From the IMG/VR virus record IMGVR_UViG_3300021962_000038: DNA of 64,000 nt; one strand, written 5' to 3'. Positions 44,970 through 64,000 of the stretch are shown piece after piece. Every line of letters begins with the position of its first letter. Position 1 is the stretch's first letter. The DNA is from an uncultured virus (IMG/VR IMGVR_UViG_3300021962_000038). Lineage: Duplodnaviria > Heunggongvirae > Uroviricota > Caudoviricetes. Made by a program: the position numbers and the translations under genes. The notes under the pieces were generated by a model. The model saw only the letters and a program-made list of their open reading frames with translations, searched no databases and had not been told where the DNA came from.

Positions 44970-47900
44970 ATGCAGAAAACTGACCTAAATATTACACCAT
45001 ATTATGACGACTATAGTGAGGACAAAAACTTTCATAAGGTTCTGTTCCGTGCTGGTCGTCCACTTCAAGCAAGAGAATTAACTCAATCACAGTCTATATT
45101 ACAAAATCAGGTTGAAAGACTTGGTAGTCACTTCTTCAAAGAAGGTTCTATCATACAAGGTGCTCAAACTGATGTCAATATGGACTACTACTTTGTTAAA
45201 GTAAATTCTGCAAACCCTAATTCAAATGGTGATGCTAATGTAGAGACATATAGAACATCATCACACGGTTCATTTATCAGAGGTAAAACTTCAGGTGTAG
45301 TTGCACAGATTATGACATCTAGTGCAGAGACAACCGATGATAAACTAACACTATTTGTCAAGTATAAATCACAAGGTACAGACACAGATCATTCATTTGC
45401 CTTTACTGCAAATGAGAGTATAGAATTTGTTTCATTTGATTCAAGTGGTAATGCAACTGCAACTGGAAGTAATAACGAGTTCTCAGTTGTTGCATCTACC
45501 GACACACCAAATGGTCGTGCCTCTATTGCAAACATTTCAGAGGGTGTCGTCTTTATCAGAGGTTTCTTCTGTAAAGTAGATGCACAAGAAATTATACTTG
45601 AGAAATATTCAGGTAAACCATCTTATAGAGTAGGTCTAAAAGTAACAGAAGAACTTATCAGTTCTGCAAATGACAACACACTTTTAGACAATGCAACAGG
45701 AACAAATAACGAGAATGCAGCTGGTGCTGACAGACTTAAGTTTTCTCTTACTCTCTCCAAGTTTTCACTTACAGATACAGACGATACAAACTTCATTGAG
45801 TTTGTAAGAGTCAATAATGGTATCATCGAATTAGAAATCACCAAACCTATTTACAATGAAATAGAGAACACACTTGCAAGAAGAACATACGATACAAACG
45901 GTGATTTTGTTGTCAATCAATTCCGATATAATTTCAGAGAACACTTAGACGACACAACCAACAGAGGATATTACACTTCTGCACTTGGTGGTGATGAGAC
46001 TAAAGTTATTATGCAAGTGTCGCCTGGAAAAGCATATGTAAGAGGATACGAAATTGATAAAGTTGGAACAACACCAATCACTATCAATAAAGCAAGAACA
46101 AAAGTATCACTTGACAATGCAAACTCACCAGTTAGACTTGGAAACTTTTTACGAGTAAACAATGCACACTCACTACCTGAATTTGGTAATGAGTCAGGTA
46201 CAGATGCACAAACTCCATACGGATTATGTAAACTATGGAGTGATTATACATCTTCATCTGCAGGTACAGAACCTTCAGGAGACTATATTGGTTTCTGTAG
46301 AGTTAGAGACATCACAATTAGATCAAGTGGTGGTGTTGACGGAGACGGTGTATACAACGACAGTTCAGTATTTCAACTTAGTATATTTGATGTAAAATTA
46401 CTGACAAAGATTTCATATTCTGCACATTCAGGTACAGCAAAAGGTGGTGATAAAGTCACTGGTTCTGTATCAGGTGCAACAGGTATCATTGCATACGATA
46501 ACAACTCGAATGCACTTTACATACACGATGTAGATGGTACATTCTTAGACACTGATGCAATCAGTTCAGAAGGTGCTGGAGACTTTGCACTTACAGCAGG
46601 TCAAAACACAGGAGTTAGAACCTATGACATTGGTGTGGTTAGAGGTATTTCTCAAGTTCCACAAAACACAAACAGAGAAGTTTTCACAGCTGATACACTT
46701 GTTGATAAAGAAGCAACATTATCAGGAGTTGTAACATTTACTAATGCATCTGCAACCATGTCAGGATTTGGTTCTAGATTTGTAAATCAACTAAATGTAG
46801 GTGATGTGGTATACAACCCTGCAGCTTCTGAATATCATGTTGTAACAGCAGTAACCAACGATACAACTGCAACCATTACACAATTCAATGGAAACGGTGC
46901 AACGACTGCTGGTGGAGACTATCAAGGTAAAGTAACAAGATTTAGAACTGCAATCTATAACCAAGACCAACTTGCAAATATATTTGCATGGCCAAGAGAT
47001 TGGGTTGCAACACATACAGGTGAGTCTGCTACTGTAAGAAGACAAGAGGTTGTTACCGTTGACTCAAACGGTAAGTTTGAATTAGACACAGGAACAGGTA
47101 CTTTTGGTACAAGAAACACAGATAATTTCACTCTTGCAATTGTAGAACCTAAGTCAGGTGGAACACCTGATTATGCCGCTGGTGATTTGATCGATATCGA
47201 ATCACTTACTGAAGATAGTTTGACTTCTACAGGTTCAGGTCAGGTTCTTACAATGTCAGGATTACCAAACGATAATGGTGCATTGATTCGTGCAACATTT
47301 ACAGTTACAATTACTAATCCATCTAACAGACAAAAAGTATTACGACAAGCAAGATGTTTGAAAGTCGGAAGTGCAAGAACTGCTGGTGGATACTATGGAA
47401 CTGCATACGATGATAGAGATATTACACTAGGTGTCTCTGATGTATTCAGAATTCGTGCAATTTACGAAGGTGTGGGTGGAACAGATCCACTACCACCAAG
47501 TGCAACACTAAACAGTATCAATGGAACATTTACACTCTTTGAAACTGTCGTTGGTCAGACTTCAGGTGCAAGAGCAACACTAATCGATTACAATGGTGGA
47601 AGTGCAACTTCATATTGGTATTATACAAATGCAAATAAATTTGTAGATGGAGAGACAATCGTTGGAGCGACTTCAAGTGCCTTTGCAACAATTAGTGGTG
47701 TATCACAAGGTTCACCAAATATTAGAAACAGATATCTATTTGATGATGGACAGAGAGATGGATACTATGACATATCAAAAATCATTAGAAAACAAGGTAG
47801 TGCAGCTCCAAATAATCCAATTGTAATTGTATTTGATTATTTCACCTCTTCAGGTAGTGGAGATTACTATGATGTAAACTCATATCTAAATGCAGGTGTT

Positions 47901-50900
47901 GATTATAAAGACATTCCTGTTTACTCACCAAGTAGAGTTGACTTAGGTGGATTAGAACCTGATGGTACATTTGAATTATCAGATGCAGTCGACTTTAGAC
48001 CAAACTTAGGACAAATTCTAGGTACTACAACTTTTGGAAGTGCAAACCCTGATCTTACATCGATTGTAGACTTATCAAACACAACAAGTGGTGCTGTATA
48101 TGCACCATTCTCATATGTTGGTAATACACAAGCACTTGGTACAAATCACGGTAAATCATTTGAGTCTGCAAGAACAGGTATCACTGCAACTGGTTCAAGT
48201 GTAAACGATGTTCCAGTTGACGGAACAAGTGTTGTCGGAGATATTGATTTTTATGTAAGTAGAATAGACAGAGTATACTTACATAAGAGTGGACTATTCC
48301 AAGTTGCAACTGGTATTCCTGCAATCACACCTCAAAGACCTAAAGGTGTTGATGATGCAATCGAATTATTCGAGTTACGCATACCTGCGTACACGCTGAA
48401 TACAGATGGAATAACAGTAACCTCAAAAGATCACAGACGATACACAATGGCTGATATCGGTAAGATAAACAAAAGGGTTACCAACTTAGAAAGAATAACA
48501 TCACTTTCATTATTAGAAAAAGATGTTCAATCAAAACAGATTTTAGACGCTGACGGTTTCGACAGATTCAAGTCAGGTTTCTTAGTAGATAACTTTAGAG
48601 GTCACAAACGAGGTGATGTTTTCCATCCTGATTATCAGTGTGCAATTGATAGTAAGAGAGGACAACTAAGACCAAGATCATACGAACAATTCTTTGACAT
48701 TTCACAGAATACAAGTTCATCCTCACACTTCCGAAAAACTGGTGATCTTATAACATTACCTTATACTGAAGCGACCTTTATCAATCAATCAAAAGGTTCG
48801 AGATCTATCAATGTAAACCCATATAATGTGTATGCATTTATAGGTAATGTAAAACTATCACCTGAAACAGATGTATGGCAAGATACAGAGAACTTACCAA
48901 CAGTAACCATCAATAGAGAAGGAACTTTTGATGCAGTTCTCGCAGGTAACGGAAATCAAACTGTAGGAACAGTTTGGAACGACTGGCAAACAACATGGGT
49001 TGGAGAACCCTCAGTAGTAGATACTGAATTAGTTTCAACAACTGGTGGTCATTGGGAAGGAGATCCTGCACAAGGTGGAACATGGATTTCAGGAGAAGTG
49101 GTTACAAGAGAAATTACTGAAACTCCTGAAGTAGAAACTAGATCAGGAATTACAACTACAGTTGTTGAAGATTTTGTAGAAACAAGAAACGATAGAGTCG
49201 TATCAGTTTCAATTATTCCTTTCATGAGATCAAGGACTATTACAATTGATGCAACCAATCTAAAACCAAATACACATCATTGGGTATTCTTTGATGGTAT
49301 CAGAGTTGATGCATATGTAAGACCATACAGTGCAACTTACTCACAAGACGGTGGAACAACTGTTTCATCAGGTGTGAAAACAGATGGTAACGGTAGACTT
49401 CGTGCATACTTTGAACTACCAAATAGTTCAACACAAAGGTTCCCAACAGGTGAAGCTAAATTAGAAATCACCTCAAGTTATTACAATAACCCTGCACCTG
49501 CATCTCATGGAAGTGCAACATATAGTGCTCAAGGTTTATTACAGTCAAATCAAACAGAAATTATTTCAACAAGAAACGGAAAGGTAATTGTAGAAAATGT
49601 ATCTGCATCAAGAAACATTATAAGAAGAGGTGAACAACTAAACTCTCTTGCAATTGATGAGATACCACCTGACACAACACCACAAGAAGATCCAAATCCA
49701 TTTGATTGGGGTGAAGCAGATGATGATGATGATCGTCCACCACCAATCTCTGATTTACCTGAAGATAATGATATGCCTGTTGACAGAGGTGGAGACCGAA
49801 GGGTAGTTCCAATTAGACCTCGTGAGGGTAGAGAAATTGATGGTGGTTATGGTGATCCACTTGCACAATCATTCTTGGTTGATGCACAAGGTGGTATTAT
49901 GTTGACATCTGTTGATCTGTTCTTCCATAAGAAATCTACAGATATGCCAGTCAGTGTTGAAATTAGAAATATGGTCAACGGTTATCCTGGCCAGATTATT
50001 CTTCCATTCTCAAAGGTATCAAAAAATCCTGCTGATGTTAATATATCTACAGATGGTTCAACTGCAACAACCTTTACATTCGACTCTCCAGTTTTCCTAG
50101 AAGAAGGAAAGGAGTATTCCTTTGTAGTTATCTCAAACTCAGATGATTATGAAGCATTTATTTCTAGAATGGGTGAAACAGATCTAGTTACAGGACAAAC
50201 AATTTCAGGACAACCTTATGCAGGTTCATTATTCTTATCACAAAATGCATCTACATGGACAGCAGAACAAACAGACGATTTGAAATTCCATCTGAAGATG
50301 GCTTCATTTGATACAACTAAGAATGGTTCTGTAGTGTTTGAGAATGATGCACTACCAACTGTAAAACTACAAGAGAACCCAATTAAGATGTTCTCAGGAC
50401 AAACTTATTTCCAAGTTGCAAGTTATTCACACGGTATGTATCATACATCATCAAATGTAACTCTCTCAAACATTGAGGGAGATGAAGAAGGTGTAGTTAC
50501 AAATATCACACACAGTTCATCAGGTACACTACCAGTTGCAGGAACTTACTCTGCACAATCAACTACTGATACAGTTGGAACTGGTTCAGGTTGTACAGTT
50601 ACAGTTGTTGTATCAGGTTCAGTTGGAAACGAAGTTATCGATAGTGTCAAGATTGCAAGTGGTGGTACAGGATATACAACAAGTTCATCTCTACAAGTTA
50701 CTAACTTAGGTGGAGAGACAAATACACTTACTATGTCAGTTGATGCAGTCAGTGACACATTGGGTGGAATACCAATTGGTGCATTGAATACTACATTTAC
50801 TGCAATTGCAAATATTACGATTGATACATTTACTGTAACTGCTGATTTATCTTCTTATGACTTTATAAGTGGATATACTGCAACACATAACACAATAGGT

Positions 50901-51689
50901 GGTGGTATTGAAGTTAGATCAAGTAGAAACTATTACTTTGATGCAATTCATACTATGATACCTAGTGTTGTCCATACAGGTACAAGAATGTTTTGTCAAG
51001 TTTATGGAACTTACATGGATACTCCTGAAGCAACAGGGGGTGGTACAGTTTACACACAACAAGCCTCAGGTGAGTATATAACATTGAATGATAACTCATT
51101 CTTCTCATACCCAAGAATTGTTGCATCAAGTATCAATGAAACAAATGAAATGTCATCTAAGAAGTCATTCAAACTTGTTTTATCAATCAAATCATTCAAT
51201 AAAAACATCTCACCGATTATAGATGTTGGTACGATTGGTTGTTTAGGTATCATGAATAGAATAAACAATGTGGATACATCTGCTGATGTACCTACAGGAA
51301 CAACTTACATTCCTTCAACAGTTGCAGAAGGTGATAACAATGCATTCGTGTATTGCACTAAGAAAGTAAATCTTCAAACACCTGCAACTGCAATTAGAGT
51401 AAATGCAGATGTGTTTAGACCTTTTGGTTCAGATGTTAAATTCTTATTCAAAATTTTGACAAACGATGATAATACACCTTGGGATGAATTAGGTTGGAAT
51501 TATTTCAATACAGATGGTTCACCTGATACATCGATACCTCAAGATGGAAGAAACTTCAAAGAATATGAGTTTACTGCCGAGAACCTAAGAGAGTTTAGTG
51601 CATTTGCAGTCAAGATTGTTGGACAATCATCAAATACAAGTAGACCACCATTGGTGTCTTCATTGAGATGTTTAGGACTTGCAACATAA
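44970..51689 (+). CDS. Large virion structural protein (VrlC/DUF4815-like)
   Basis: LN..PYYDD, LFR.G..LQARELTQ.Q, GADR, PGKAYV.GYE, FDDGQRD, DRFKSGF.VDNF, DPLAQSF. Confidence 0.88.
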   Translation: MQKTDLNITPYYDDYSEDKNFHKVLFRAGRPLQARELTQSQSILQNQVERLGSHFFKEGSIIQGAQTDVNMDYYFVKVNSANPNSNGDANVETYRTSSHGSFIRGKTSGVVAQIMTSSAETTDDKLTLFVKYKSQGTDTDHSFAFTANESIEFVSFDSSGNATATGSNNEFSVVASTDTPNGRASIANISEGVVFIRGFFCKVDAQEIILEKYSGKPSYRVGLKVTEELISSANDNTLLDNATGTNNENAAGADRLKFSLTLSKFSLTDTDDTNFIEFVRVNNGIIELEITKPIYNEIENTLARRTYDTNGDFVVNQFRYNFREHLDDTTNRGYYTSALGGDETKVIMQVSPGKAYVRGYEIDKVGTTPITINKARTKVSLDNANSPVRLGNFLRVNNAHSLPEFGNESGTDAQTPYGLCKLWSDYTSSSAGTEPSGDYIGFCRVRDITIRSSGGVDGDGVYNDSSVFQLSIFDVKLLTKISYSAHSGTAKGGDKVTGSVSGATGIIAYDNNSNALYIHDVDGTFLDTDAISSEGAGDFALTAGQNTGVRTYDIGVVRGISQVPQNTNREVFTADTLVDKEATLSGVVTFTNASATMSGFGSRFVNQLNVGDVVYNPAASEYHVVTAVTNDTTATITQFNGNGATTAGGDYQGKVTRFRTAIYNQDQLANIFAWPRDWVATHTGESATVRRQEVVTVDSNGKFELDTGTGTFGTRNTDNFTLAIVEPKSGGTPDYAAGDLIDIESLTEDSLTSTGSGQVLTMSGLPNDNGALIRATFTVTITNPSNRQKVLRQARCLKVGSARTAGGYYGTAYDDRDITLGVSDVFRIRAIYEGVGGTDPLPPSATLNSINGTFTLFETVVGQTSGARATLIDYNGGSATSYWYYTNANKFVDGETIVGATSSAFATISGVSQGSPNIRNRYLFDDGQRDGYYDISKIIRKQGSAAPNNPIVIVFDYFTSSGSGDYYDVNSYLNAGVDYKDIPVYSPSRVDLGGLEPDGTFELSDAVDFRPNLGQILGTTTFGSANPDLTSIVDLSNTTSGAVYAPFSYVGNTQALGTNHGKSFESARTGITATGSSVNDVPVDGTSVVGDIDFYVSRIDRVYLHKSGLFQVATGIPAITPQRPKGVDDAIELFELRIPAYTLNTDGITVTSKDHRRYTMADIGKINKRVTNLERITSLSLLEKDVQSKQILDADGFDRFKSGFLVDNFRGHKRGDVFHPDYQCAIDSKRGQLRPRSYEQFFDISQNTSSSSHFRKTGDLITLPYTEATFINQSKGSRSINVNPYNVYAFIGNVKLSPETDVWQDTENLPTVTINREGTFDAVLAGNGNQTVGTVWNDWQTTWVGEPSVVDTELVSTTGGHWEGDPAQGGTWISGEVVTREITETPEVETRSGITTTVVEDFVETRNDRVVSVSIIPFMRSRTITIDATNLKPNTHHWVFFDGIRVDAYVRPYSATYSQDGGTTVSSGVKTDGNGRLRAYFELPNSSTQRFPTGEAKLEITSSYYNNPAPASHGSATYSAQGLLQSNQTEIISTRNGKVIVENVSASRNIIRRGEQLNSLAIDEIPPDTTPQEDPNPFDWGEADDDDDRPPPISDLPEDNDMPVDRGGDRRVVPIRPREGREIDGGYGDPLAQSFLVDAQGGIMLTSVDLFFHKKSTDMPVSVEIRNMVNGYPGQIILPFSKVSKNPADVNISTDGSTATTFTFDSPVFLEEGKEYSFVVISNSDDYEAFISRMGETDLVTGQTISGQPYAGSLFLSQNASTWTAEQTDDLKFHLKMASFDTTKNGSVVFENDALPTVKLQENPIKMFSGQTYFQVASYSHGMYHTSSNVTLSNIEGDEEGVVTNITHSSSGTLPVAGTYSAQSTTDTVGTGSGCTVTVVVSGSVGNEVIDSVKIASGGTGYTTSSSLQVTNLGGETNTLTMSVDAVSDTLGGIPIGALNTTFTAIANITIDTFTVTADLSSYDFISGYTATHNTIGGGIEVRSSRNYYFDAIHTMIPSVVHTGTRMFCQVYGTYMDTPEATGGGTVYTQQASGEYITLNDNSFFSYPRIVASSINETNEMSSKKSFKLVLSIKSFNKNISPIIDVGTIGCLGIMNRINNVDTSADVPTGTTYIPSTVAEGDNNAFVYCTKKVNLQTPATAIRVNADVFRPFGSDVKFLFKILTNDDNTPWDELGWNYFNTDGSPDTSIPQDGRNFKEYEFTAENLREFSAFAVKIVGQSSNTSRPPLVSSLRCLGLAT

Positions 51690-51690
51690 G

Positions 51691-51903
51691 ATGAAAAAGT
51701 TTGCAAGAGTTGAAGGACACAACACTCTCGTAAGAGATGAAGAAACAACTGCAATCATAAACACAGATATAAATGCATATTTTTATGCAAAACAAAGAAA
51801 GGAAAAATTCTTATCTCAAACAAGAGAAATAAATACATTAAAACAAGAAGTAACTGAGATAAAAGAGTTACTTCATAGAGTGGTAGAGAAAATAAATGGC
51901 TAA
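51691..51903 (+). CDS. Small conserved T4-like protein
   Basis: VEGH..LVRD..T.AIIN ... EI..LK.E..EIK.LL. Confidence 0.75.
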   Translation: MKKFARVEGHNTLVRDEETTAIINTDINAYFYAKQRKEKFLSQTREINTLKQEVTEIKELLHRVVEKING

Positions 51904-53263
51904 GACAGTAGACAATTTTAGTACAATAGAAAACTTCAGAACGAGGTATAATGAACTCGCCACCGATGTTGGTGATATTGCAGGTCTTAGAAGTGCAATT
52001 GGTGGTGCAACACTTGTAGATGCACTCAACACTTTAGAAGATAAATCATTTTTCTTTCAAGAATTTATTTTCAATGCAACTGCATCTCAAACCACATTTA
52101 GTGGTAATGATGAATTTGATAATGAACTAAGATTCAAAAGAAATAGAATTCAAGTTTTCCAAAACGCTAATCATCTATTAGAAGATGTTGATTACATTAT
52201 CGGAGGCCCATCAGGAAGTTTCCACACTTCTATTATTCTAAACTCAGGTGCATCTCTAAATGATAAAATTGTCATCTATGCATATACTGGTTCCTTTGAA
52301 GGAACATCTGCATCTGCTAATATTGTAGGATATTTTTCAGAGTCAACACTAAACACTATTTACAATACTAACGATAATGGTATTATTCTAAATGGTGATA
52401 ACTCTACACCTACAACACAACTACAATCAGGTTACACAATTCAACTTGCAGGTAAAACATATGCAGAAGATAATATTACACTTGCAAGTGGTAAAACACT
52501 TTCTGCACCTGTCATAACAGATGGTACTGCACAAATCACAGGTGGTGTTGGAACTTCATTCTCAAGTATTACTTCAACAAATTTTGTAGGTAATCTAACA
52601 GGTAATGTTACCTCAACAGGAACATCAACATTTTCAAATATAGATGTCAACGGTGGTGCAATAGACGGTGCTGTTATTGGTGCAAACTCAGCAGCTGCAA
52701 TCACTGGTACAACAATTACCGCAAGTACTAACTTCTCAGGAAATCTAACAGGTAATGTCACTGGTAATGTCACTGGTGATGTGACAGGAACAGTTTCAAG
52801 TTTATCTAACCACGATACAGATGATGTAGCAGAAGGATCAACTAACCAATACTTCACAAACGCAAGAGCAGATGCTAGAATCGCAGCTGCTAGTATAGAA
52901 GATTTGTCAGATGTACACACATTAGGAACACCAACTGCTGGTCAGATACTTGCATGGAATGCTTCAAATAATAGATTTGAAATAGCAGACAATGCAACAG
53001 TTTCAGGAAGTATTACAGAAACAACAAATAAATACTTTACAGATGCCAGAGTAAATGATGTAATATCTGCTGGTTCAGGTCTTGCTAAATCTTATAATGC
53101 AGGCACTAGTGATCCTTTAGATGGTGTCGCTACATTATCTGTAAACACATCAAACGGTATCAAAATAGACGGTGATGATGTAGAGTTAGATTACGAAACA
53201 GTGAGTTCCGCACCTTCTAGTGTAGGTTCAACTTCAACAGGTCACTTGTGGTTTGTGATTTAA
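51896..53263 (+). CDS. Fibre/whisker-like structural protein
   Basis: T.E.FR...N N-terminus, GNLTGNVTG repeats, TDD..EGSTN.YFT repeats, C-terminal P......GHLWFV. Confidence 0.75.
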   Translation: MAKTVDNFSTIENFRTRYNELATDVGDIAGLRSAIGGATLVDALNTLEDKSFFFQEFIFNATASQTTFSGNDEFDNELRFKRNRIQVFQNANHLLEDVDYIIGGPSGSFHTSIILNSGASLNDKIVIYAYTGSFEGTSASANIVGYFSESTLNTIYNTNDNGIILNGDNSTPTTQLQSGYTIQLAGKTYAEDNITLASGKTLSAPVITDGTAQITGGVGTSFSSITSTNFVGNLTGNVTSTGTSTFSNIDVNGGAIDGAVIGANSAAAITGTTITASTNFSGNLTGNVTGNVTGDVTGTVSSLSNHDTDDVAEGSTNQYFTNARADARIAAASIEDLSDVHTLGTPTAGQILAWNASNNRFEIADNATVSGSITETTNKYFTDARVNDVISAGSGLAKSYNAGTSDPLDGVATLSVNTSNGIKIDGDDVELDYETVSSAPSSVGSTSTGHLWFVI

Positions 53264-53279
53264 TGAAAAATGGTAGATA

Positions 53280-54479
53280 ATGTCAGAAGAAATTTATATA
53301 AACAGTGGAAGCACATTTCAACAACCTTATATAGGTAGAGCTTCTGTTAATGCACAACAACCTACCGTAGGTAGAACTCCATTCATTTATACAGCACAGG
53401 GACGATCACCCTTTACTTATCAGGCACAGAACCCTGCAACCTATCAAGCACAGGGTCAAGGTCAAACACCATATATTGCTAATGCACAACAGCCTTATCC
53501 ATATATTGCAAATGCACAGACACCTTACATTGCAAATGCAACTCAACCTTACCCATTTATTGCTAATGCACAACAGCCTTATATTGCTAATGCACAACAA
53601 CCGTATCCCTATATTGCAAATGCACAAACACCTTATATTGCAAATGCACAACAACCTTATCCATATATTGCGAATGCTCAACAACCATACATAGCAAATG
53701 CAAGAAACCCATTTACTTATCAGGCACAGGGAAATACACAACAACCTTATCCGTTTAGTTTTCAAAACCCATTTACTTTTCAGGCACAAGGTCAGACACC
53801 TTATCCGTACATTGCAAGTGGAAGAAGACCTGTTAGTGTACAGAGTCCATACACATTTAGTACACAACAACCTGTAATAGGAAGAACACCTTACATATAT
53901 GCAGGTGATGTAAGTTATATTGGAAGTTATGGAGTTTCTTATGGTGAATATACTTCACGATCATCAGGTTCTGCAACTGCAACCTGTTCATGGATTTTCT
54001 ATGCATATTACACAGATTTAACTATAATTGAATTAAGAATACTAAGGCAGCAGTCAGATAGTGGTGGTTATTACAATACATCAAATGTATTTCAAAGTCC
54101 AAATACTTATGCTGATCTACCTCAGCCAGTTACTTCTGCCATAGGTTTATGTTATTATATTGATGATGTTCCAAGTGGGTATTCAGTTAGATATAATATA
54201 AACAGTACAAATGACGATGGTATTGGTAGTTCTATTATCGATGGTTATTCAAGTTCACCATGCAACGCTACAATGACAACATCTGCACAAAGTATTTCAA
54301 TGAGTACTATACGAGGTGTTCGTTTTAGAAAATCTGTAACGGTTACTGACGGTGAGTTTGAGGCTGGTTTTACAGTATGGAATGTCTCATTCATTTTTGA
54401 AAAATCAGGTTCAACAACCTTTACAAAAACATTTGATATAGAATTACTTGCAGAAGCAGAATCATTTGGGGGTCAATAA
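53280..54479 (+). CDS. Pro/Tyr/Gln repeat fibre protein A (QQPYIANA repeats plus C-terminal beta-rich domain)
   Basis: Residues 16-204 are a strict 6/8/10/12-residue proline-punctuated repeat. The last ~190 aa are non-repetitive. Confidence 0.8.
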   Translation: MSEEIYINSGSTFQQPYIGRASVNAQQPTVGRTPFIYTAQGRSPFTYQAQNPATYQAQGQGQTPYIANAQQPYPYIANAQTPYIANATQPYPFIANAQQPYIANAQQPYPYIANAQTPYIANAQQPYPYIANAQQPYIANARNPFTYQAQGNTQQPYPFSFQNPFTFQAQGQTPYPYIASGRRPVSVQSPYTFSTQQPVIGRTPYIYAGDVSYIGSYGVSYGEYTSRSSGSATATCSWIFYAYYTDLTIIELRILRQQSDSGGYYNTSNVFQSPNTYADLPQPVTSAIGLCYYIDDVPSGYSVRYNINSTNDDGIGSSIIDGYSSSPCNATMTTSAQSISMSTIRGVRFRKSVTVTDGEFEAGFTVWNVSFIFEKSGSTTFTKTFDIELLAEAESFGGQ

Positions 54480-54481
54480 AA

Positions 54482-54679
54482 ATGTCAGTAACATATAATA
54501 TTGATAACATTGAAGTTTTAAATTCTGATTTGTCAAATGTAACTGTTACTTTTACTGATGGTTCAAACACACTAACAAGAACCTATAAAAGACTAACAAA
54601 ACATGAATCTTTAGATGCACAGAGTTGGAAACTAGATAGAGTAAAAGAATTTTTAGAAACAGAGGTATGGAGTAGTTAA
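54482..54679 (+). CDS. Small hypothetical protein between the repeat genes
   Basis: 65-aa ORF with 2-nt gaps to both neighbours. Confidence 0.65.
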   Translation: MSVTYNIDNIEVLNSDLSNVTVTFTDGSNTLTRTYKRLTKHESLDAQSWKLDRVKEFLETEVWSS

Positions 54680-54681
54680 AG

Positions 54682-55407
54682 ATGCCTATAGGTCAACAAC
54701 CATATCCATATACTGTCCCTGTTATTGCAAATGGAACTTATCCAGTTATAACACAGCAGCCCTATACATTTTCAGCACAGGGTACAACACCTTATCCGTA
54801 TATTGGAAATGCAAGACAACCTGTAACAGCTCAAGGACGAACACCTGCAACATATCCTTATATTGCAAGTGCCCAACAACCGTTCACTTATCAAGCAAGA
54901 CAACCATTTACATATCAAGCAACTGGTAGAACACCGTTCACATATCAGAACAGACAACCAAGTACTTATCAAGCAACTGGACGAACACCCTTTACATATA
55001 ATGCAAGATCACCTTTTACTTATCAAGCAACTGGGGGTACACCATTTACCTATCAAGCAAGACAACCAAGTACTTATCAAGCACAGGGAAGGACACCATT
55101 TACATATCAAAACAGACAACCGTTTCCTTATCCGTATATTGCAAACACTAATCAACCTTATATAGCTAATGCACAACAACCTTACACATACAATGCAAAT
55201 GCACAACAACCTTATATTTTCCAAACACCGTTTACTTATCAGGTTCCGTATATTGCAACTAGACCTATCGGCCCGATTGCAAAGGTGAAGGGTGTCTTCA
55301 TAAATCAAAATGGTTCAATTGTAAAAGCACAAGAAATATATGTAAATGATAGTGGAACCCTAAGAAAAATACATCAAGCAGTTCCAAATGCACAATTTCA
55401 AACATAA
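54682..55407 (+). CDS. Pro/Tyr/Gln repeat fibre protein B (RQPFTYQA/GRTPFTYQ repeats)
   Basis: Residues 7-195 are repeats. C-terminal KVKGVFIN...EIYVNDSG beta motif. Confidence 0.8.
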   Translation: MPIGQQPYPYTVPVIANGTYPVITQQPYTFSAQGTTPYPYIGNARQPVTAQGRTPATYPYIASAQQPFTYQARQPFTYQATGRTPFTYQNRQPSTYQATGRTPFTYNARSPFTYQATGGTPFTYQARQPSTYQAQGRTPFTYQNRQPFPYPYIANTNQPYIANAQQPYTYNANAQQPYIFQTPFTYQVPYIATRPIGPIAKVKGVFINQNGSIVKAQEIYVNDSGTLRKIHQAVPNAQFQT

Positions 55408-55425: not shown

Positions 55426-55758
55426 ATGGCTATCATTGCAAACCTCTATATAGATCAAGGAACAGACTTCAGTATTACAGTTGATGTAACTGATAGTGCA
55501 GGTGATATTTTAGAGTTGAGTGACTATACAGCAGCTGCACAAATTAGAAAAACTTATAGTTCATCATCTGTCAGTGCAACCTTTGCTACTTCAATTGCAG
55601 AGTTAGCAGGTCAAGTAACTATTTCTTTGACTGATACACAAACAGCTGCACTTGAATCAGGTAGATATGTGTACGATCTAAATATAACAAGTTCTGCAGG
55701 TTTAGTCACAAGAGTAATTGAAGGACAGGCAATCGTAACGCCTGGTGTAACAAGGTAA
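55426..55758 (+). CDS. Virion structural protein (BppU-N-like Ig fold)
   Basis: NL.IDQG.DF, L..Y.A.AQIRK, G...ISLT..QT, GRYVYD, RVIEG...V.PGVT. TATAAATA at 55413-55420. Confidence 0.8.
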   Translation: MAIIANLYIDQGTDFSITVDVTDSAGDILELSDYTAAAQIRKTYSSSSVSATFATSIAELAGQVTISLTDTQTAALESGRYVYDLNITSSAGLVTRVIEGQAIVTPGVTR

Positions 55759-55984: not shown

Positions 55985-56863
55985 GTGAATTCTATACGCT
56001 CATACGATGAGTGGTCTACTTTACAAGAAATTATATTAGGTACCACAGGTCTAAATTTTAGTCATCCTATCTTTCCGATAGTCGAAGAAGGGTTAGATGC
56101 ATTCTCAAATATTCTCAAAAAACACAATGTAAAGGTTTACAGACCTGAAGGGTTTTGTTATAATGTACGAGATTGTGCATTCGTCTATGGTGATATGATC
56201 GTAGATGCACCTATGAAATATCAAGACAAATATGTAGAACTCGATACACTCAAACCAATTTTTCAACAAAAAATGTTAGAGGGTGGTAGATGGTTGTCTG
56301 CACCCAAACCTAAATGGGACGGAACCAATGAACCCCTTTTTGATGCAGCTAATATTGCAAGAATAGGAAAGGATATAATTTTTGCAGTAAACAAAACATC
56401 CAATCGAATGGGAAGACAGTGGTTGAGATCCTTACTTCCTGATGACATCACCATACACTCTGTATCAACTTTTGCAACAGTATCACACATTGACACAACG
56501 ATTGTACCACTTGCACCTTATGTTGTAATGGTTAACTCTAGTAGAATTACACCTAGTACACTTCCCTCATGTTTTTTAAAATATGATGTGATATGGATAA
56601 AGGAAGATGACTTGGTAAAAACAGAACTTATTGATAACACACCTTTCAAGGAGACTGCAAGTGATTGGATAGGTATGAATGTTCTTTCATTAGATAAAGA
56701 AAGAGTTTTTGTACAAGAAGAACAAACAAAACTTATGGACAAACTTTCTAAACACGGTTTTGAGTGCATTCCTGTACCACTGAAACACACACGAGAAATG
56801 TGTGGTGGTCTACATTGTTGCACTTTAGATTTAGTTAGGGAGTCTTATTTGTATAAATATTAG
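55985..56863 (+). CDS. Amidinotransferase (glycine/inosamine-phosphate amidinotransferase family)
   Basis: EW..L.E.I.G, RD, FDAAN..R.G.D, HIDTT..PL, W.GMNVLS, GG.HC.TLD..R. Confidence 0.9.
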   Translation: MNSIRSYDEWSTLQEIILGTTGLNFSHPIFPIVEEGLDAFSNILKKHNVKVYRPEGFCYNVRDCAFVYGDMIVDAPMKYQDKYVELDTLKPIFQQKMLEGGRWLSAPKPKWDGTNEPLFDAANIARIGKDIIFAVNKTSNRMGRQWLRSLLPDDITIHSVSTFATVSHIDTTIVPLAPYVVMVNSSRITPSTLPSCFLKYDVIWIKEDDLVKTELIDNTPFKETASDWIGMNVLSLDKERVFVQEEQTKLMDKLSKHGFECIPVPLKHTREMCGGLHCCTLDLVRESYLYKY

Positions 56864-56999: not shown

Positions 57000-58595
57000 A
57001 TGGCAACAGTCATTCAAATTAAAAGGTCAACAGGTTTATCTGCTCCTACAACTTCTGACTTATCAGAAGGGGAATTAGCGTATACCCAAGACCGTTCCAA
57101 TAGTGGTGCAAGTGCAAAACTATGGATCGAATCTGTTGATTCAGATAACTCTACTCCTTTGATCCAAGCTATCGGTGGTAAATACTACACTGATATTCTT
57201 GCAGGATCATCTGCAACACCTGCTAACTTTATCGTTGGTAACGGTGCAACATCAGGTGCTTCAGTTCAATTGAGAGAAGATTCTGACAACGGTTCAAACT
57301 ATGTTGCATTGAAAGCACCTGATAATATTGGTACTTCATTGACCTTTACATTACCATCAGCTGATGGTACTTCAGGTCAGTTTTTATCAACAGACGCTTC
57401 AGGAAATCTTTCTTTTGCATCAGCAATTTCAACACTTGCAGGTGCTACAGACTCAGATATCTCTGCTCCAACATCAGGACAAGTTCTTGTATGGGATGGT
57501 ACAGATTCATTTGATAATGTAAGCATTTCAGGTGACGCTACACTTGCTTCAGACGGTGCTCTAACAATTTCTGCTGGTGCAGTTGAGAACTCAATGTTAG
57601 CAGGTTCAATCTCATATGACAAGATCGACTTCTTAGTTGACGAAGACAACATGGCATCTGATTCAGCTGTCAAAGTTCCTACTCAACAGTCAGTCAAAGC
57701 ATATGTTGATTCACAAGTAACTGCTCAAGACTTAGATGTTTCAGACGGAACTACAGCAATTGATATTGACTTAGATTCTGAAACTCTTTCAATCTTAGGT
57801 GGTACTGGTGTAACATCAACTGCTTCAGGTACAAGTGTCACACTTGCTATCGGTCAGGCAGTTGGTACATCTGATAATGTTCAGTTCAACAATGTTCAAG
57901 TTGACGGAACTCTTACTTCAGATGACTTAACATCAGCAAACATTACTGCTACAGGTAACTTGACTGTTTCAGGTAACTTGACTGTTAATGGTACAACAAC
58001 TACAGTTAACTCAACAACTACTTCAGTTGCTGACCCTGTATTTGAAATCGGTGATGATTCCTCAGACGATAACCTAGATCGTGGTATCAAATTCCTATGG
58101 AATGATGGTTCTGCTAAAGTAGGTTTCTTTGGTATGGATGATTCTGATTCTAAATTCAAATTTATTGCAAACGCTACAGATACCTCTTCAGTATTCTCAG
58201 GTTCACTTGGAAATGCTGCTTTCGGTGGTTTAGAAGCAACAGGACTTGCACTTTCAGGTTCTATTACTTCAGTTGACGGTTCTGCTCCTACTGCTGGACA
58301 ATTACTCATTGGTAATGGTTCTAATGGAGACATGGAACTTGCTACATTGACAGCTGGTGAAGGACTTGATGTAACAAATGCTGACGGTTCAATCACAATA
58401 TCTGCTGAAGATGCAACTGCTGGTAACAAAGGTATTGCTTCATTCTCTGCTAGTTACTTTACTGTAACTTCAGGTGATGTTGCTATCAATGATGCTTCAA
58501 CATCTGCAAAAGGTATTGCTTTATTTGACTCAAGTAACTTCTCAGTATCAAGTGGTACTGTAACAGTCACAGCTATAGACGGTGGTACATTCTAA
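57000..58595 (+). CDS. Tail fibre-like protein with Mtd-N-like N-terminus
   Basis: IQIKRS..GELA, LKAP, TLP.ADG..GQ.L.TD.SG.LSF, PTQQSVKAYVD, GNLTV.GTTTTVNST; ends IDGGTF. Confidence 0.8.
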   Translation: MATVIQIKRSTGLSAPTTSDLSEGELAYTQDRSNSGASAKLWIESVDSDNSTPLIQAIGGKYYTDILAGSSATPANFIVGNGATSGASVQLREDSDNGSNYVALKAPDNIGTSLTFTLPSADGTSGQFLSTDASGNLSFASAISTLAGATDSDISAPTSGQVLVWDGTDSFDNVSISGDATLASDGALTISAGAVENSMLAGSISYDKIDFLVDEDNMASDSAVKVPTQQSVKAYVDSQVTAQDLDVSDGTTAIDIDLDSETLSILGGTGVTSTASGTSVTLAIGQAVGTSDNVQFNNVQVDGTLTSDDLTSANITATGNLTVSGNLTVNGTTTTVNSTTTSVADPVFEIGDDSSDDNLDRGIKFLWNDGSAKVGFFGMDDSDSKFKFIANATDTSSVFSGSLGNAAFGGLEATGLALSGSITSVDGSAPTAGQLLIGNGSNGDMELATLTAGEGLDVTNADGSITISAEDATAGNKGIASFSASYFTVTSGDVAINDASTSAKGIALFDSSNFSVSSGTVTVTAIDGGTF

Positions 58596-58623: not shown

Positions 58624-59451
58624 ATGGCAACATTAATTCAATTCAAAAGAAGTTCTACTCAAAGTGCTGTTCCTACAACTGGTGATTTATCACTAGGGGA
58701 ATTAGCTGTCAATACATATCACGGTAGATTTTATACCGAGAAAAATGATGGCACAGCTGCTGTTGTAGAAGTTGGATCTAATCCTTCTTCATTGACTGTT
58801 AATGATGCTTTTACTTTCCCTACAAGTGATGGTAGTTCGAACCAAATTCTTCAAACGAATGGTTCAGGAACTCTTAGTTGGGCCGATCAGCCATCAAGCG
58901 GAATAACCGTTTACACCTACACCATATCAAGTACAACTACTTCGATTACTGGTTCAGATGACAACTCTGCTACACTTTCTTATACCGCAGGTACAGAACA
59001 AGTGTATATCAACGGTGTCAAGCTCGTAGGTGGGGGTGCTGACTATACAGCTACAAGTTCTTCAACTATCACACTAACGGAAAATGCTCTTAGTGGTGAT
59101 GTTGTTGAAGTGGTTGCAATAACAAGTGCAGCTAATTTAGTACAAGGTTTCTTTACTACATTTACTGCCTCAGCAACTACTGCAGATCAGGTACTATCAG
59201 CTAATGCAGTGGCAAACAAAACAGTCAAGTATGTGATCAATGCGACACATGCTACTGCTGGAACACACGCTGCTGAAGTATTATTAATCAACGATGGATC
59301 AAATGCATATTTCGTACAATACGGTGATGTGTATTCAAGTTCATCATTGTTTAGTTTGAGTTCAGATGTAAGTGGGGGAAACATGAGATTGCTCGTGACT
59401 CCTGCCAATACTAATACAACATTTGATACATTTCAAATCAGACTTTCATAG
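58624..59451 (+). CDS. Fibre/structural protein with Mtd-N-like N-terminus
   Basis: IQFKRS..GELAVN, FP..DG..NQ.L.T.GSG.LSW, VYINGVKL. Confidence 0.78.
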   Translation: MATLIQFKRSSTQSAVPTTGDLSLGELAVNTYHGRFYTEKNDGTAAVVEVGSNPSSLTVNDAFTFPTSDGSSNQILQTNGSGTLSWADQPSSGITVYTYTISSTTTSITGSDDNSATLSYTAGTEQVYINGVKLVGGGADYTATSSSTITLTENALSGDVVEVVAITSAANLVQGFFTTFTASATTADQVLSANAVANKTVKYVINATHATAGTHAAEVLLINDGSNAYFVQYGDVYSSSSLFSLSSDVSGGNMRLLVTPANTNTTFDTFQIRLS

Positions 59452-59967: not shown

Positions 59968-62109
59968 ATGGCAAACCAAGAAAAGTTTTTTGTAGAGTAC
60001 GGTGTAGATACAGATTCTACCACCTCATTCAAAGTGCCTGCAGGAACTACCGCACAAAGAGATGCCTCACCTGAAAGTGGACTTTTTAGATACAATACTT
60101 CAAACAATCAGTTTGAGGGATATTCAAATGGTTCGTGGGGTGAGATCGGTGGTTCTTCTTTAGGTCAAAGTTTTGATGTGGATACATTCACAGGTGATAA
60201 TTCAACCACCGCATTTACACTAGGTCGTTCAGTCAGTAGTGAAGACTATCTTATTGTCTTTATTGACGGTGTATTTCAAGCACAAGATGCTTACACACTA
60301 TCAGGTACAACTCTTACTTTAGACTCACCACCTGCAACAGGTTCATCAATCATTGCCTATTCAGTAGTACCCATTTCAGTTGCAGAGATACCAGCAGATA
60401 CAGACGACCTTACAGAAGGATCAACCAATTTATATTTCACTAATGCTAGGGTAGATAGTAGATTATCCTCAGGTAGTGTTGCAACGATAGAGACATCAGG
60501 TAATGTAACAGTTGGTGGTGATCTCTCAGTCTCAGGTGGTCTTACAGTTTCAGGTACTACAACAACAGTCAATTCAACCACCACATCTGTAACAGACTCA
60601 ATGATCGAACTTGCAAACTCAAACACAAGTTCAGATGTTATTGATATTGGTATTTACGGAAACTATGATGATGGTTTATCAGAAGGTGGTGTATCAGAAT
60701 ACACAGGTTTATTCAGAGATGCTTCAGACTCAACTTGGAAACTCTTTGATGGTTTAGAAGAAGAACCTACCACAACAGTCAACATAGCAGGAACTAATTA
60801 CGCAAAAGCTGCTTTAGAAGTTGGTGACTTAGATGCAACAACAATAACAACAACAGACATAAATTTAGAGAACACAGGTGGTAATGCTGTAATAGATATA
60901 AAAGCAAGTAACTCAGGTTTATCAAGGGTCAATCTAGGTGATACAGATGGTGCAACTAGAGGCGGTCTAAAGTACGATCATTCAGATGACAGTATGGCAT
61001 TCAGAGCAAATGGTTCTGATCAAATGACCTTGACAAATACAGGATTGGGTATAGGTGCGGATACTCCACAGCAATTGCTACATTTAAGTGCTGAAAGTCC
61101 AAATATATTATTAGAGGGAACAAATTATCCTGCTTTAAAATTTTCAGGAACAGACTATACAACTGATGCTGAGATTTATTATGGAATTGGTGCAAGTGAT
61201 TTAAATATTAATAATTATAATAACGGAATAATAGCCCTTAAAACCAATAACACAGAACGCTTAAGGATTGATAGTTCAGGCAATCTTGGCGTTGGTATAT
61301 CTACCATAGAACAACTCGGTTCAGATAGTGTATACCCAAGAATACAATCATATAGTTCTGCTACCACAGGACATTTCTGTGGTCTTATGATTGGAAGACC
61401 AAATAATCCAGGCTTAGAATCATCAATAGCATTTACTGTTGGCGGAATTATGGTTGGAAAGATACAACATGACTATGTTGCAGAAAATCATAACGATATG
61501 TCATTTCACCTTAGAGGTGCTTCAAGCAATATAGATATAGAGGTTGCAAGATATTGGGCAGGCACAGGTACCGAAACAGCGTATTTGATTGGAACCACAT
61601 CTGCTACTTTATCAGGAACGGATGATGGATTTGTATTCAAAAGTGATGGTAATAGTTCATTTGTATCAGGTACAGGTATCATGTACATGCGAAGAACTAC
61701 CTCTAATGGAACACACATTAAATTTAGAAGCACTACAAATGCTACTGTAGGTCAAATTGATTCTGATGGTTCTAATACATCTTATGTAACATCTTCAGAT
61801 TATAGATTGAAAGAAAATGTAACTTACGATTTTGATGCACTTACAAGAGTACAACAACTCAAACCTGCAAGATTTAATTTTATTGCAAATCCTGATATTA
61901 CTCAGGATGGATTCATTGCACATGAGGTACAAGACATTGTTCCTATTGCAGTTTCGGGCATAAAAGATGCAGTAGATGAAGAAGGTAATATAGAACCACA
62001 AGGTGTTGACCATAGTAAACTTGTACCGCTTCTAACAAAAGCCATCCAAGAACAACAAACCATCATTGAAAACCTCAAAGCAAGAATAGAAACATTGGAG
62101 AACGCATAA
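59968..62109 (+). CDS. Tail fibre with C-terminal intramolecular chaperone (peptidase S74)
   Basis: ERLRIDSSGN.G.G repeats; SDYRLKEN, GFIAHEVQ..P.AV, KLVPLL.KAIQEQ. Confidence 0.9.
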   Translation: MANQEKFFVEYGVDTDSTTSFKVPAGTTAQRDASPESGLFRYNTSNNQFEGYSNGSWGEIGGSSLGQSFDVDTFTGDNSTTAFTLGRSVSSEDYLIVFIDGVFQAQDAYTLSGTTLTLDSPPATGSSIIAYSVVPISVAEIPADTDDLTEGSTNLYFTNARVDSRLSSGSVATIETSGNVTVGGDLSVSGGLTVSGTTTTVNSTTTSVTDSMIELANSNTSSDVIDIGIYGNYDDGLSEGGVSEYTGLFRDASDSTWKLFDGLEEEPTTTVNIAGTNYAKAALEVGDLDATTITTTDINLENTGGNAVIDIKASNSGLSRVNLGDTDGATRGGLKYDHSDDSMAFRANGSDQMTLTNTGLGIGADTPQQLLHLSAESPNILLEGTNYPALKFSGTDYTTDAEIYYGIGASDLNINNYNNGIIALKTNNTERLRIDSSGNLGVGISTIEQLGSDSVYPRIQSYSSATTGHFCGLMIGRPNNPGLESSIAFTVGGIMVGKIQHDYVAENHNDMSFHLRGASSNIDIEVARYWAGTGTETAYLIGTTSATLSGTDDGFVFKSDGNSSFVSGTGIMYMRRTTSNGTHIKFRSTTNATVGQIDSDGSNTSYVTSSDYRLKENVTYDFDALTRVQQLKPARFNFIANPDITQDGFIAHEVQDIVPIAVSGIKDAVDEEGNIEPQGVDHSKLVPLLTKAIQEQQTIIENLKARIETLENA

Positions 62110-62110
62110 C

Positions 62111-63034
62111 ATGGCAACCACAAAGGTAACAAAAGGAGTCATTGCAGATAATGCTGTCGGTATAGATCAGTTAGATGTAACCGATGGATCAAACGGTCAA
62201 GTTCTCTCTACAGACGGTAGTGGGACATTATCGTTCACTTCTGTTACAAGTTATTCTGATTCAGCTGTAGAGACATACTTAGATAGTGGAACATCAACCC
62301 CTATTTTAGCAAATGCAACATTTGGTGGAATAATATTAAGAGATGGAAGTGGTTCTATAGGAATAAATAGAAACCCTTATAATGGTAATAGTGTTTCAGA
62401 TTCAAACTTACAAAGATTTCAAATCAATGCTCCATCAAGTGGTTCAGACTTTTTAGATTTTCAATCTTATAACAGCAGCGGAACATATACAGGTAGTTTT
62501 TATTTAAACGCTGGCAAGCTTGGTATTGGTACGAGTAGCCCAACAGATAGACTTCATGTAGTAGGAACTTCATTTTTAAATGGTAATACTTATGTTGGTT
62601 CAGGTGGTTCAGGTAATATTTATCTTAGTGCAGGAACAGGTATTTACATGGATGGCGGTACAACTTCTGCAAATCTTCTTGACGATTACGAGGAAGGTAC
62701 TTGGACTCCTAGTTTAAATGCAGGAAGTTTTAGTTCTGTAAATGCTAGATACACAAAAATAGGTAGGGTTGTTACATTAACAGTAGATGCAACAGTAGGT
62801 ACTGGTGGTGGTTCACAAATATCTAACATACCATTTACTGCTGGAAATACTACAGGAACTGCAATATACACAAGTGGTCAAGATTTTAATAGTGGAAGAA
62901 CAGTTCCAATTGTCATAGTAGGTGGTGGTTCAACTACAATGTATTTTAGAGATATAGGAGATAATGTATCTTATTTAGGATTGGCTTTAACAGCAGGTGC
63001 AGCAATTTCTTTTACTTTAACTTATGATGTGTAA
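62111..63034 (+). CDS. Tail fibre protein
   Basis: GIGTSSP..LHV, LDDYEEGTWTP, YTKIGR.V, PF. Confidence 0.85.
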   Translation: MATTKVTKGVIADNAVGIDQLDVTDGSNGQVLSTDGSGTLSFTSVTSYSDSAVETYLDSGTSTPILANATFGGIILRDGSGSIGINRNPYNGNSVSDSNLQRFQINAPSSGSDFLDFQSYNSSGTYTGSFYLNAGKLGIGTSSPTDRLHVVGTSFLNGNTYVGSGGSGNIYLSAGTGIYMDGGTTSANLLDDYEEGTWTPSLNAGSFSSVNARYTKIGRVVTLTVDATVGTGGGSQISNIPFTAGNTTGTAIYTSGQDFNSGRTVPIVIVGGGSTTMYFRDIGDNVSYLGLALTAGAAISFTLTYDV

Positions 63035-63445: not shown

Positions 63446-63679
63446 ATGGCAACACAAAACAAATTTGTTATCGAGTACGGACTTAGTGTAGGTTCTACAG
63501 AAGTAATCACATCTTCAGGTAAGATCGTTGCAGCTGCAATTTCAGACTTAGACACAGACGATCTTTCAGAAGGTTCTACAAATGTTTACTTCTCAACCTC
63601 AAGAGTCGATACTCATCTCGCAGACGGAACTGCATCAAAAACATTAAACAATGTTCAGATTGACGGAGGCACCATCTAA
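63446..63679 (+). CDS. Small structural protein ending IDGGTI
   Basis: KFVIEYGL and TDDLSEGSTN.YF motifs shared with neighbours. Confidence 0.7.
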   Translation: MATQNKFVIEYGLSVGSTEVITSSGKIVAAAISDLDTDDLSEGSTNVYFSTSRVDTHLADGTASKTLNNVQIDGGTI

Positions 63680-64000
63680 TGGCTGGAGAAAAGAACTTTG
63701 TAGTCAAGAACGGACTCTCTATCGGAACAACAGAGGTAATAACCTCTTCAGGTAAAGTTACATCTGCAGCTTTATCATCAAACACTGATTTCACAGAACA
63801 GGTACAAGATATTGTCGGTGCTTTTATCACAGGAACAGGGTCAACAACAGTAACCTACAACGATGCTGGTGATGCACTTACAATCTCATCAACAGGTAAA
63901 ACCGAAGAAGAAATCCAAGATATCGTTGGTGCTCAGTTAGTAACCAACGGTTCACATACAAACATTACTGCATCTTACGATGATGCAGGAGACGGTGCAG
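63679..64000 (+). CDS. Fibre/structural protein, truncated by the window end
   Basis: TAATG coupling; MAGEKNFVVKNGLSIG..., repeated E.VQDIVGA. Open to the end of the window. Confidence 0.75.
   Translation, partial: MAGEKNFVVKNGLSIGTTEVITSSGKVTSAALSSNTDFTEQVQDIVGAFITGTGSTTVTYNDAGDALTISSTGKTEEEIQDIVGAQLVTNGSHTNITASYDDAGDGA

Follow-up and report, generated by a model that had tools for sequence, protein, structure and literature searches.

Genes A and B carry mirror-image proline arrays

The DNA analyzed here is a stretch of 64,000 nucleotides from an uncultured virus of the Caudoviricetes (IMG/VR record IMGVR_UViG_3300021962_000038); this whole stretch is hereafter called the window. It contains two genes on the same strand, A and B, each of which encodes an array of short repeat units bounded by prolines. 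Read from one proline to the next, the unit lengths of B are those of A in reverse order. The series of unit lengths is referred to as the barcode. The pair comprises the following features:

53280..54479, + strand: gene A, 399 amino acids (aa), with a putative docking motif (residues 1-15), an array (residues 16-204) and a beta-sandwich domain (residues 205-399)
53325..53891, + strand: array of A (residues 16-204), 21 units with lengths of 6, 8, 10 or 12 residues
53892..54476, + strand: C-terminal domain of A (residues 205-399), an all-beta sandwich and candidate distal tip
54482..54679, + strand: small open reading frame (ORF) between A and B, 65 aa, candidate tip-specific accessory protein or chaperone
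54682..55407, + strand: gene B, 241 aa, with the N-terminus MPIGQQ, an array (residues 7-195) and a conserved C-terminal tail (residues 196-241)
54700..55266, + strand: array of B (residues 7-195), 21 units, each equal in length to the A unit that it faces in the mirror

The array of A consists mainly of PYIANAQQ and PYPYIANAQT units, with PFTYQ-type units at the flanks. Conversely, the array of B is mainly built of PFTYQARQ and PFTYQATGRT units and has PYIANAQQ-type units at its flanks. The spacings in A are 12,6,10,8,12,8,10,8,10,8,10,8,10,8,12,8,10,10,6,8,6, and the spacings in B are the exact reverse in 21 of 21 intervals. It was first claimed in an earlier reading of the window (the original prediction) that 22 prolines in each array follow this rule, that all spacings are even, and that each position in A and its counterpart in B sum to 211. 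All 22 + 22 listed positions are prolines, the B spacings are those of A reversed, and 22 of 22 position pairs sum to 211. A recount also verified that every spacing in A and in B is even.

Some prolines were left out of this series. In the array of A these are residues 74, 92, 110, 128, 158 and 176, all of which are second prolines of PxP motifs. In the array of B they are residues 9, 39, 149 and 151 (PxP), plus 59 (+4) and 189 (+6, both relative to the preceding counted proline), and prolines 2 and 198 of B fall outside the barcode series. The original prediction had declared the exclusion of P189; P59 was also skipped but went unnamed, which is a small free choice. We therefore also give the result of an objective rule, in which every proline of the repeat region is counted and PxP motifs are collapsed. 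With this rule, 21 of the 23 prolines of B are mirrored in A at one offset. The best parallel alignment matches 16, and the most successful of 200 shuffles of the B intervals reached 14 mirrored prolines. The two prolines of B that are not mirrored face N and S in A. When the array of A is mirrored on itself, 16 of 24 prolines match, and the central (8,10)x4,8 block between the 12s is a palindrome by itself. Because this central block is self-palindromic, the non-trivial information of the barcode lies in the flanks.

Inverted DNA was considered as the origin of the mirror symmetry and ruled out. The DNA of the two arrays has 36 direct 12-mers in common and zero reverse-complement 12-mers, which bears out the earlier claim that the DNA is not an inverted repeat. 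The symmetry therefore exists at the protein level only. The direct DNA words common to both arrays indicate that A and B are paralogues.

The mirror rule is kept across related gene pairs

Viral contigs were scanned with A, which yielded 191 confirmed stretches, and 80 loci were retained. Of these loci, 74 carry a B-like ORF downstream of the A-like one, on the same strand. No second array ORF was found on that strand in the other 6 loci (L010, L027, L054, L060, L066 and L076). Including the window, the set comprises 75 pairs. The 57 distinct ones among them display 43 different B barcodes, and their B arrays range in length from 148 to 522 residues. In 40 of the 57 pairs, A directly adjoins B with a gap of -1 to +39 nucleotides. 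A has 319 relatives, the majority of which resemble it over the first ~210 residues only. The family is small, as a search of 1.84 billion sequences gave 138 representatives at E up to 0.001; its members are all named 'hypothetical protein' in the databases, and all sources are marine metagenomes.

For the 57 distinct cognate pairs, the best mirror offset matched a median of 97% of the prolines (mean 94.5%, minimum 73%). The best parallel offset matched about half of them, and a parallel pairing of A and B was rejected on comparison with the mirror median. Self-palindromy was likewise rejected as the source of the mirror, as arrays mirrored on themselves matched at only about 50% of their prolines. 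Non-cognate pairs of similar span reached a median of 57% (920 comparisons), and 0 of 11,400 shuffles of the B intervals equalled the observed mirror match. In locus L001, for instance, the barcode of A (6,6,8,10,8,10,8,10,8,10,8,10,10,6,6,8,10,6,8,6) is unlike that of the window, and its B is the exact reverse.

We inspected 11 pairs individually, namely the imperfect ones and that of the window. In every one of them all matches lie at one offset, and the unmatched prolines face T, A, S or N. The mismatches are therefore substitutions and not bulges or register slips. Gains and losses of repeats in A are mirrored in B, with one register for each of the 57 distinct pairs and 43 barcodes, as expected from the original prediction.

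Facing units are complementary and co-vary

Unit pairs were defined as the segments bounded by matched prolines (n = 1,734). Most are 8 (793), 6 (613) or 10 (319) residues long, and a few have 4 (6) or 12 (3) residues. Family-wide, 99.4% of 1,923 B spacings are even. The units were split crudely into two classes: 'beta' units start with P-x-[T/I]-[Y/F] (e.g. PFTYQNRQ), and the remainder are called 'alpha' (PYIANAQQ, PVNAQQ). Among the 1,734 unit pairs, 1,625 are hetero-class, 108 are alpha-alpha, and only 1 is beta-beta. The complementary unit types described for the window by the original prediction hold for the whole family. In the window itself, this crude two-class pattern assigned 19 consecutive matched unit pairs to 15 hetero-class (11 + 4), 3 alpha-alpha and 1 beta-beta pairs. 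The alpha-alpha cases of the family are mostly due to a third kind of 6-residue unit, PAGYRN facing PVSYRV. Either class occurs on either chain, and the residue enrichments are symmetric (I-R/R-I, Q-F/F-Q, A-Y/Y-A and G-Y/Y-G).

Covariation between facing units was scored against a null in which partners were permuted within each locus and class. The covariation of facing residues exceeds what locus composition accounts for, and z reaches 27. The last alpha residue and beta position 1 gave z values of 26.7 in 8-residue units and 12.9 in 10-residue units, and the third-last alpha residue and beta position 1 gave 20.1 and 24.5, respectively. Alpha position 1 co-varies with beta positions L-1 and L-3 (z of 12-14). 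Most of the signal lies between positions on the same face. Residue size is compensated: alpha Ala goes with beta Phe in 650 of 680 cases in 8-residue units, and alpha Ser with beta Gly in 112 of 126 cases in 10-residue units and 12 of 12 cases in 8-residue units.

Residues follow a strict two-residue periodicity. Counted from the unit proline, odd offsets hold 3,156 of the 3,157 Tyr and 1,351 of the 1,352 Phe residues, and even offsets hold 1,129 of the 1,158 Ile residues and every Pro. The alternation of side chains is unbroken across all unit borders. By established beta-sheet geometry, such strict alternation indicates uninterrupted beta strands in which aromatic and alanine residues line one face and polar residues the other. 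In strands of this kind all prolines would direct their imide nitrogen to one and the same edge, and an even-offset mirror register would place the prolines of both chains at non-hydrogen-bonded sites simultaneously. Mutual information has its maximum (1.57) at a shift of -2 and amounts to 1.18 at shift 0; any even shift fits the proline parity, and the physical register is not fixed by this measure.

Single-chain relatives contain both arms

Single-chain hairpin homologues of the kind considered in the original prediction were looked for and found. P0095, P0109, P0119 and P0128 combine an A-type N-terminus and a B-type C-terminal tail in one chain, and a search with the irregular middle of P0119 added P0194, P0195, P0068 and P0117. 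In P0119, P0109 and P0095, the position of the first proline plus that of the proline in the PIGP anchor equals exactly the best mirror offset. Over its first 110-145 residues, the N-arm has its prolines opposite those of the C-arm, and the middle ~230 residues are unmirrored, as expected for a tip. Since both end types and mirrored arms occur in one chain, either the hairpin has been split in the two-gene form or two genes have been fused in the single-chain form.

The ends of the pair define two types of kit

Two genes flank the pair in the window:

51896..53263, + strand: upstream fiber-like protein, 455 aa, ending in ...GSTSTGHLWFVI; phrog_697 'structural protein', E 2.2e-08
55426..55758, + strand: LtfC-like protein (L-shaped tail fiber assembly), 110 aa; phrog_1084, E 2.1e-28, and phrog_3304, E 2.9e-24

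Together with such neighbors, the pairs form kits of two types. In the type-1 kit, to which the window belongs, the upstream fiber gene ends in ...GHLWFVI and A starts with M-x-[D/E]-E-I-Y-I-N-T-G; B ends in a KVKGVF...KIHQ... tail, which resembles the start of A, and is followed by the 110-aa LtfC-like gene. In the type-2 kit, the upstream fiber gene ends in ...GDLWILYS, A starts with three VKTPxGW-like motifs, and B ends in ...PVIRWD...WP... and is followed by a gene of about 525 aa. In all 53 pairs that could be typed (12 + 41), the three end types were associated in this way; 4 pairs were untypable. A gene with the C-terminal motif of the window type lies directly 5' of A in 12 of 12 type-1 pairs, and one with the other fixed ending in 41 of 41 type-2 pairs. 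The upstream 455-aa protein is thus a candidate for the proximal part that docks the N-terminus of A and the C-terminus of B. The tail of B matches phrog_13729 (E 9.5e-06), is conserved in the relatives and resembles the N-terminal motif of A. An LtfC-like homologue of 110-111 aa is present 3' of B in the listed type-1 loci, except for L004, where the locus ends. The LtfC-like protein of the window matches Pfam family PF23926 with E 0.0016 and 19.4 bits, which is below the cut-off of 27.

Five contigs (L001/L057, L004/L024, L003/L042, L005/L032 and L018/L048) carry one type-1 and one type-2 kit about 10 kb apart. The barcodes of the two kits on one contig are orthogonal: cognate pairs match at 80-100% and cross pairs at 39-70%. 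Within its 64 kb, the window contains a type-1 kit only.

Tip domains and small ORFs vary together

AlphaFold2 predicted residues 208-399 of A as a beta sandwich of 11 strands with a predicted local distance difference test (pLDDT) score of about 80-98. The original prediction had named a C-terminal tip domain of ~190 aa as a receptor-binding candidate. The separate domain stands as a confidently predicted beta sandwich, and the binding role is one that we infer. No clear solved relative was found for this domain: the best hits of Foldseek (E 0.014) and VIA-align (Z 6.0) were generic immunoglobulin-like sandwiches.

In related A proteins, the tip position is occupied by the 190-aa domain of the window, by unrelated domains of 140-350 aa, by a Hint/intein-like domain or by a short glycine-rich tail. 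The Hint-type Pfam families PF14623, PF01079 or PF14890 were detected in A-like relatives such as P0006, P0010 and P0013. For A of the window there was no Pfam match at E up to 0.01, hence no Hint/intein-like domain by this search, and no PHROG family match. A-like genes with a Hint/intein-like end were seen at L029:3905-5200 and in L022, L031, L038, L047, L050, L072 and L075, as well as in P0006, P0010 and P0013. This domain begins directly after a glycine run (…GGGGC…) and terminates in …VHN. The A-like proteins of L020, L025, L026, L033, L048 and L079 end shortly past that glycine run.

The 65-aa ORF between A and B matched no Pfam or PHROG family. Homologues of 82-83 aa occupy the same place in L001 and L002, both of which have the window-type tip domain in A. 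Other tip types are accompanied by different small ORFs or by none, and 40 of the 57 pairs have no room for one. Small ORFs between A and B (in the window, L001, L002 and 13 other loci) track the type of tip domain, and they may be tip-specific chaperones.

Homology searches

With A or B as the query, phmmer found 0 matches among all PDB chains at E up to 1. When A, B, the tail of B and a type-2 A were searched by tblastn against 50,697 deposited phage records, no true match was obtained; the sole hits were three weak matches to Salmonella phages with 25-27% identity. The low-complexity filter of BLAST may mask the arrays, and the non-repetitive tip and tail were likewise without a match. Record G001, a 47-kb fragment that is nearest to the window, contains no match to B. 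Methylophilales phage Melnitz, the nearest cultured relative, has no such arrays in the 42 kb around its gp6 gene. No description of these repeats was found in the full-text literature (supplements lay outside the search) or in deposited phage genomes.

The pair lies in a host-recognition cluster

The window covers the baseplate and tail-fiber region of a T4-like myophage and contains a tail tube gene as well as genes resembling gp5, gp6, gp25, gp48, gp53 and gp8. The gp6-like protein shares 43% identity with its counterpart in phage Melnitz and 38-40% with those in Pelagibacter phages Mosig and HTVC008M. A giant gene marks where the host-recognition cluster begins:

44970..51689, + strand: DUF4815 (VrlC-like) protein, 2,239 aa; PF16075, E 6.8e-69, 233 bits versus a cut-off of 30

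A and B come right after it. In most pelagimyophage genomes the genes downstream of VrlC are tail fibers, and they form a hypervariable host-recognition cluster (PMC7029224).

Further genes of the window are listed as observations in their own right. A 292-aa protein encoded inside the fiber cluster (55985-56863) has an above-cut-off match to the arginine deiminase/amidinotransferase family (PF02274, E 1.4e-05) and one to phrog_25854, and the presence of this enzyme-like protein among tail-fiber genes is unexplained. At least five more fiber-like genes are located at 57000-58595, 58624-59451, 59968-62109, 62111-63034 and 63446-63999, several of which begin with a sequence like M-A-T-x-I-Q-x-K-R-S…G-E-L. 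The phage seems to carry many different fibers. On the 5' side of the structural module there are two auxiliary-metabolism-like genes, a Nol-like carbamoyltransferase gene (4679-5815; phrog_1601) and an S6 glutaminyl-transferase-like gene (7068-8453; phrog_2599).

A model of an antiparallel two-chain shaft

We consider it likely that A and B co-assemble antiparallel in a single register as the shaft of a tail fiber encoded in the host-recognition island. Two comparative tests, the mirrored repeat changes and the single-chain hairpins, argue for the antiparallel pairing put forward in the original prediction. According to this model, A and B would be the two halves of one shaft, with residue i of A facing about residue 211-i of B. 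Each unit would face a unit of equal length and complementary class, the small, alanine-rich PYIANAQQ kind opposite the aromatic PFTYQxRQ kind. The irregular order of unit lengths (6, 8, 10 and 12) and classes would be a barcode that permits one register and one partner only. The N-terminus of A and the C-terminal tail of B would share the virion-proximal end, probably docked on the upstream fiber protein, and the C-terminal beta sandwich of A would form the distal tip together with the N-terminus of B. Three A:B ribbons set around a threefold axis would probably bury the aromatic/alanine faces. A 3+3 stoichiometry is probable because T4-type fibers are trimers. The geometry that we infer is that of a beta ribbon with the strands along the fiber axis. 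An extended strand measures ~0.33 nm per residue, and with this orientation 189 residues would therefore give a shaft of about 62 nm. The barcode would thus set the register, exclude the paralogous kit and permit a change in length only when both genes change.

Several points weigh against this model. It is built on sequence comparison, as structure prediction gave nothing for the arrays. AlphaFold2 left the array of A unmodelled (pLDDT about 30), and the single-chain relative P0119, with a 7-row alignment, reached a mean pLDDT of 30.5 and a predicted template modelling score of 0.16. A complex prediction for A(1-215) and B, run on separate, unpaired alignments and without controls, scored 0.01 against a mark of 0.32, with a pLDDT below 50 for the partner, and speaks neither for nor against the pairing. 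The mirror rule sets direction and register; strand orientation relative to the fiber axis and chain number are left free by it. Matches of 100% occur in a few non-cognate pairs of closely related loci, and therefore the barcodes are not all unique. The coupling of end types may reflect just two clades and not independent events.

The strand orientation bears directly on the strongest alternative, which keeps the same partners and the antiparallel direction. Here the units would be short transverse strands in a two-chain beta-solenoid or in packed meander sheets, the fiber would be several-fold shorter than 60 nm, and units at the same level would be equally long. Even-length repeat units suit beta-helices as well, the observed equality of unit lengths is what each level of a stack requires, and phage fibers and spikes often use beta-helices, as in the helix of T4 gp5 with its three intertwined chains (PMC4576200). 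However, the side-chain alternation runs through every unit boundary, and insertions within units are mirrored residue by residue, such that a PY extension faces a G-containing extension of the other class. The strongest covariation is also found at or beside the anti-diagonal of facing units. These three observations fit continuous strand pairing best; a solenoid with antiparallel neighbors is not strictly contradicted by them, and we regard it as unlikely.

A second alternative concerns the fate of B. It could be a sacrificial template or chaperone that zips onto A, fixes the register and leaves afterwards, with A alone remaining in the mature fiber. Apart from the array and the short tail, B contains no separate domain, and phage fibers commonly need chaperones: T4 gp37 requires gp38 and gp57A (PMC6957217), and the fibers of Alteromonas phages have transient chaperone caps (PMC10579305). 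Yet the single-chain relatives retain the B-like arm covalently, and the tail of B is conserved and resembles the N-terminal motif of A, as would be expected for a lasting docked part. Moreover, a template that has the length of its client and co-varies with it residue by residue exceeds what known chaperones need. We find this alternative rather improbable.

That the mirror arises incidentally from composition, from periodicity or from the way prolines were chosen, in two paralogous repeat proteins that act separately, is suggested by the self-palindromic central (8,10) block, the selection of prolines in the original prediction and the direct DNA words common to A and B, but is hardly credible given that the objective rule agrees, that none of the 11,400 shuffles reached the observed match, that the parallel and self-mirror controls stayed near 50% with the rule kept in 43 barcodes, and that within-locus permutations gave z above 20.

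A bolder description goes beyond the antiparallel shaft, and our confidence in it is evenly balanced. The pair would be a natural protein 'duplex' with its own pairing alphabet, made of two complementary beta-unit classes (small/alanine-rich and aromatic) and a third, self-complementary kind in lengths of 6, 8 and 10. Each unit would accept only the complementary unit of identical length on an antiparallel chain. The same balance applies to its further parts, namely that the order of units would act as an address for register and partner, that changes in the two genes would compensate each other, and that one phage could thereby carry two orthogonal fibers. If true, such a duplex would be a programmable code in beta-sheet form, analogous to base pairing or to the codes of designed coiled coils.

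If true, the antiparallel shaft would represent a fiber principle that we have not found described, in which two proteins pair antiparallel over a long distance and a modular sequence code sets the register. It would explain how mis-pairing between two similar fibers of one phage is avoided, how the fiber length can change (about 150 to 520 residues) without loss of register, and how abundant marine myophages can exchange tip domains in their host-recognition island while the shaft stays constant. The code is simple enough for peptide tests and of possible use in designed protein fibers. Co-variation between two genes would also have revealed an assembly that current structure predictors left unmodelled here.

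Comparison with known systems

Phage fibers made from more than one protein species are known. In the chain-like fiber of the Pseudomonas podophage A1002, dimers of gp40 or gp41 are arranged in tandem along a rope protein (PMC13730344). The A/B pair would resemble this fiber in being built from different proteins; unlike A/B, the A1002 fiber as described there has no antiparallel pairing of two long repeat arrays.

A repeating sequence code that sets partner and register on two extended chains is also a feature of heterospecific coiled coils and tandem beta-zippers. Coiled coils are alpha-helical, and in a tandem beta-zipper a disordered peptide binds to the folded modules of a host protein. 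In contrast to A and B, neither consists of co-evolving repeat arrays that are mirrored unit for unit.

The chains of the T4 gp5 beta-helix run parallel. This spike is a slender triple-stranded beta-helix in which short beta-strand repeats are formed by intertwined chains (PMC4576200). Here, two different chains are involved, and their prolines match at the mirror offset (median 97%) and only about half of them in parallel.

The needle of T4 gp37 is a trimer with six antiparallel strands. In its domains D10-D11 the chain runs to the receptor-binding tip and back, so that D10 is composed of residues 811-881 and 1010-1026 (PMC6957217). The same source reports that a small residue must face an aromatic one (G921 versus F970), that dedicated chaperones are needed, and that the stem contains histidine iron sites with seven iron atoms, H929 being one of the named residues (PMC6957217). 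The A/B pair is similar in that its segments would run side by side in opposite directions, which is seen here from covariation only (57 pairs and the arms of the single-chain relatives), that its single-chain relatives have an out-and-back topology, and that it would form a thin, beta-structured fiber end with small residues facing aromatic ones. The differences are as follows. In gp37 both arms belong to one polypeptide, whereas the outgoing and returning arms are here encoded by two genes with the 65-aa ORF between them. Residues 1-204 of A and residues 1-195 of B contain no histidine, and iron sites of the gp37 type are therefore impossible in the arrays. A and B lack sequence similarity to any solved chain. 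The arrays, with about 150 to 520 residues, are much longer. Finally, modular units, the complementarity of two classes and a length barcode form no part of the account of gp37 drawn from PMC6957217. The needle of T4 gp37 is thus the nearest known design, from which A and B are set apart by the number of chains, the iron sites, sequence similarity and the modular code.

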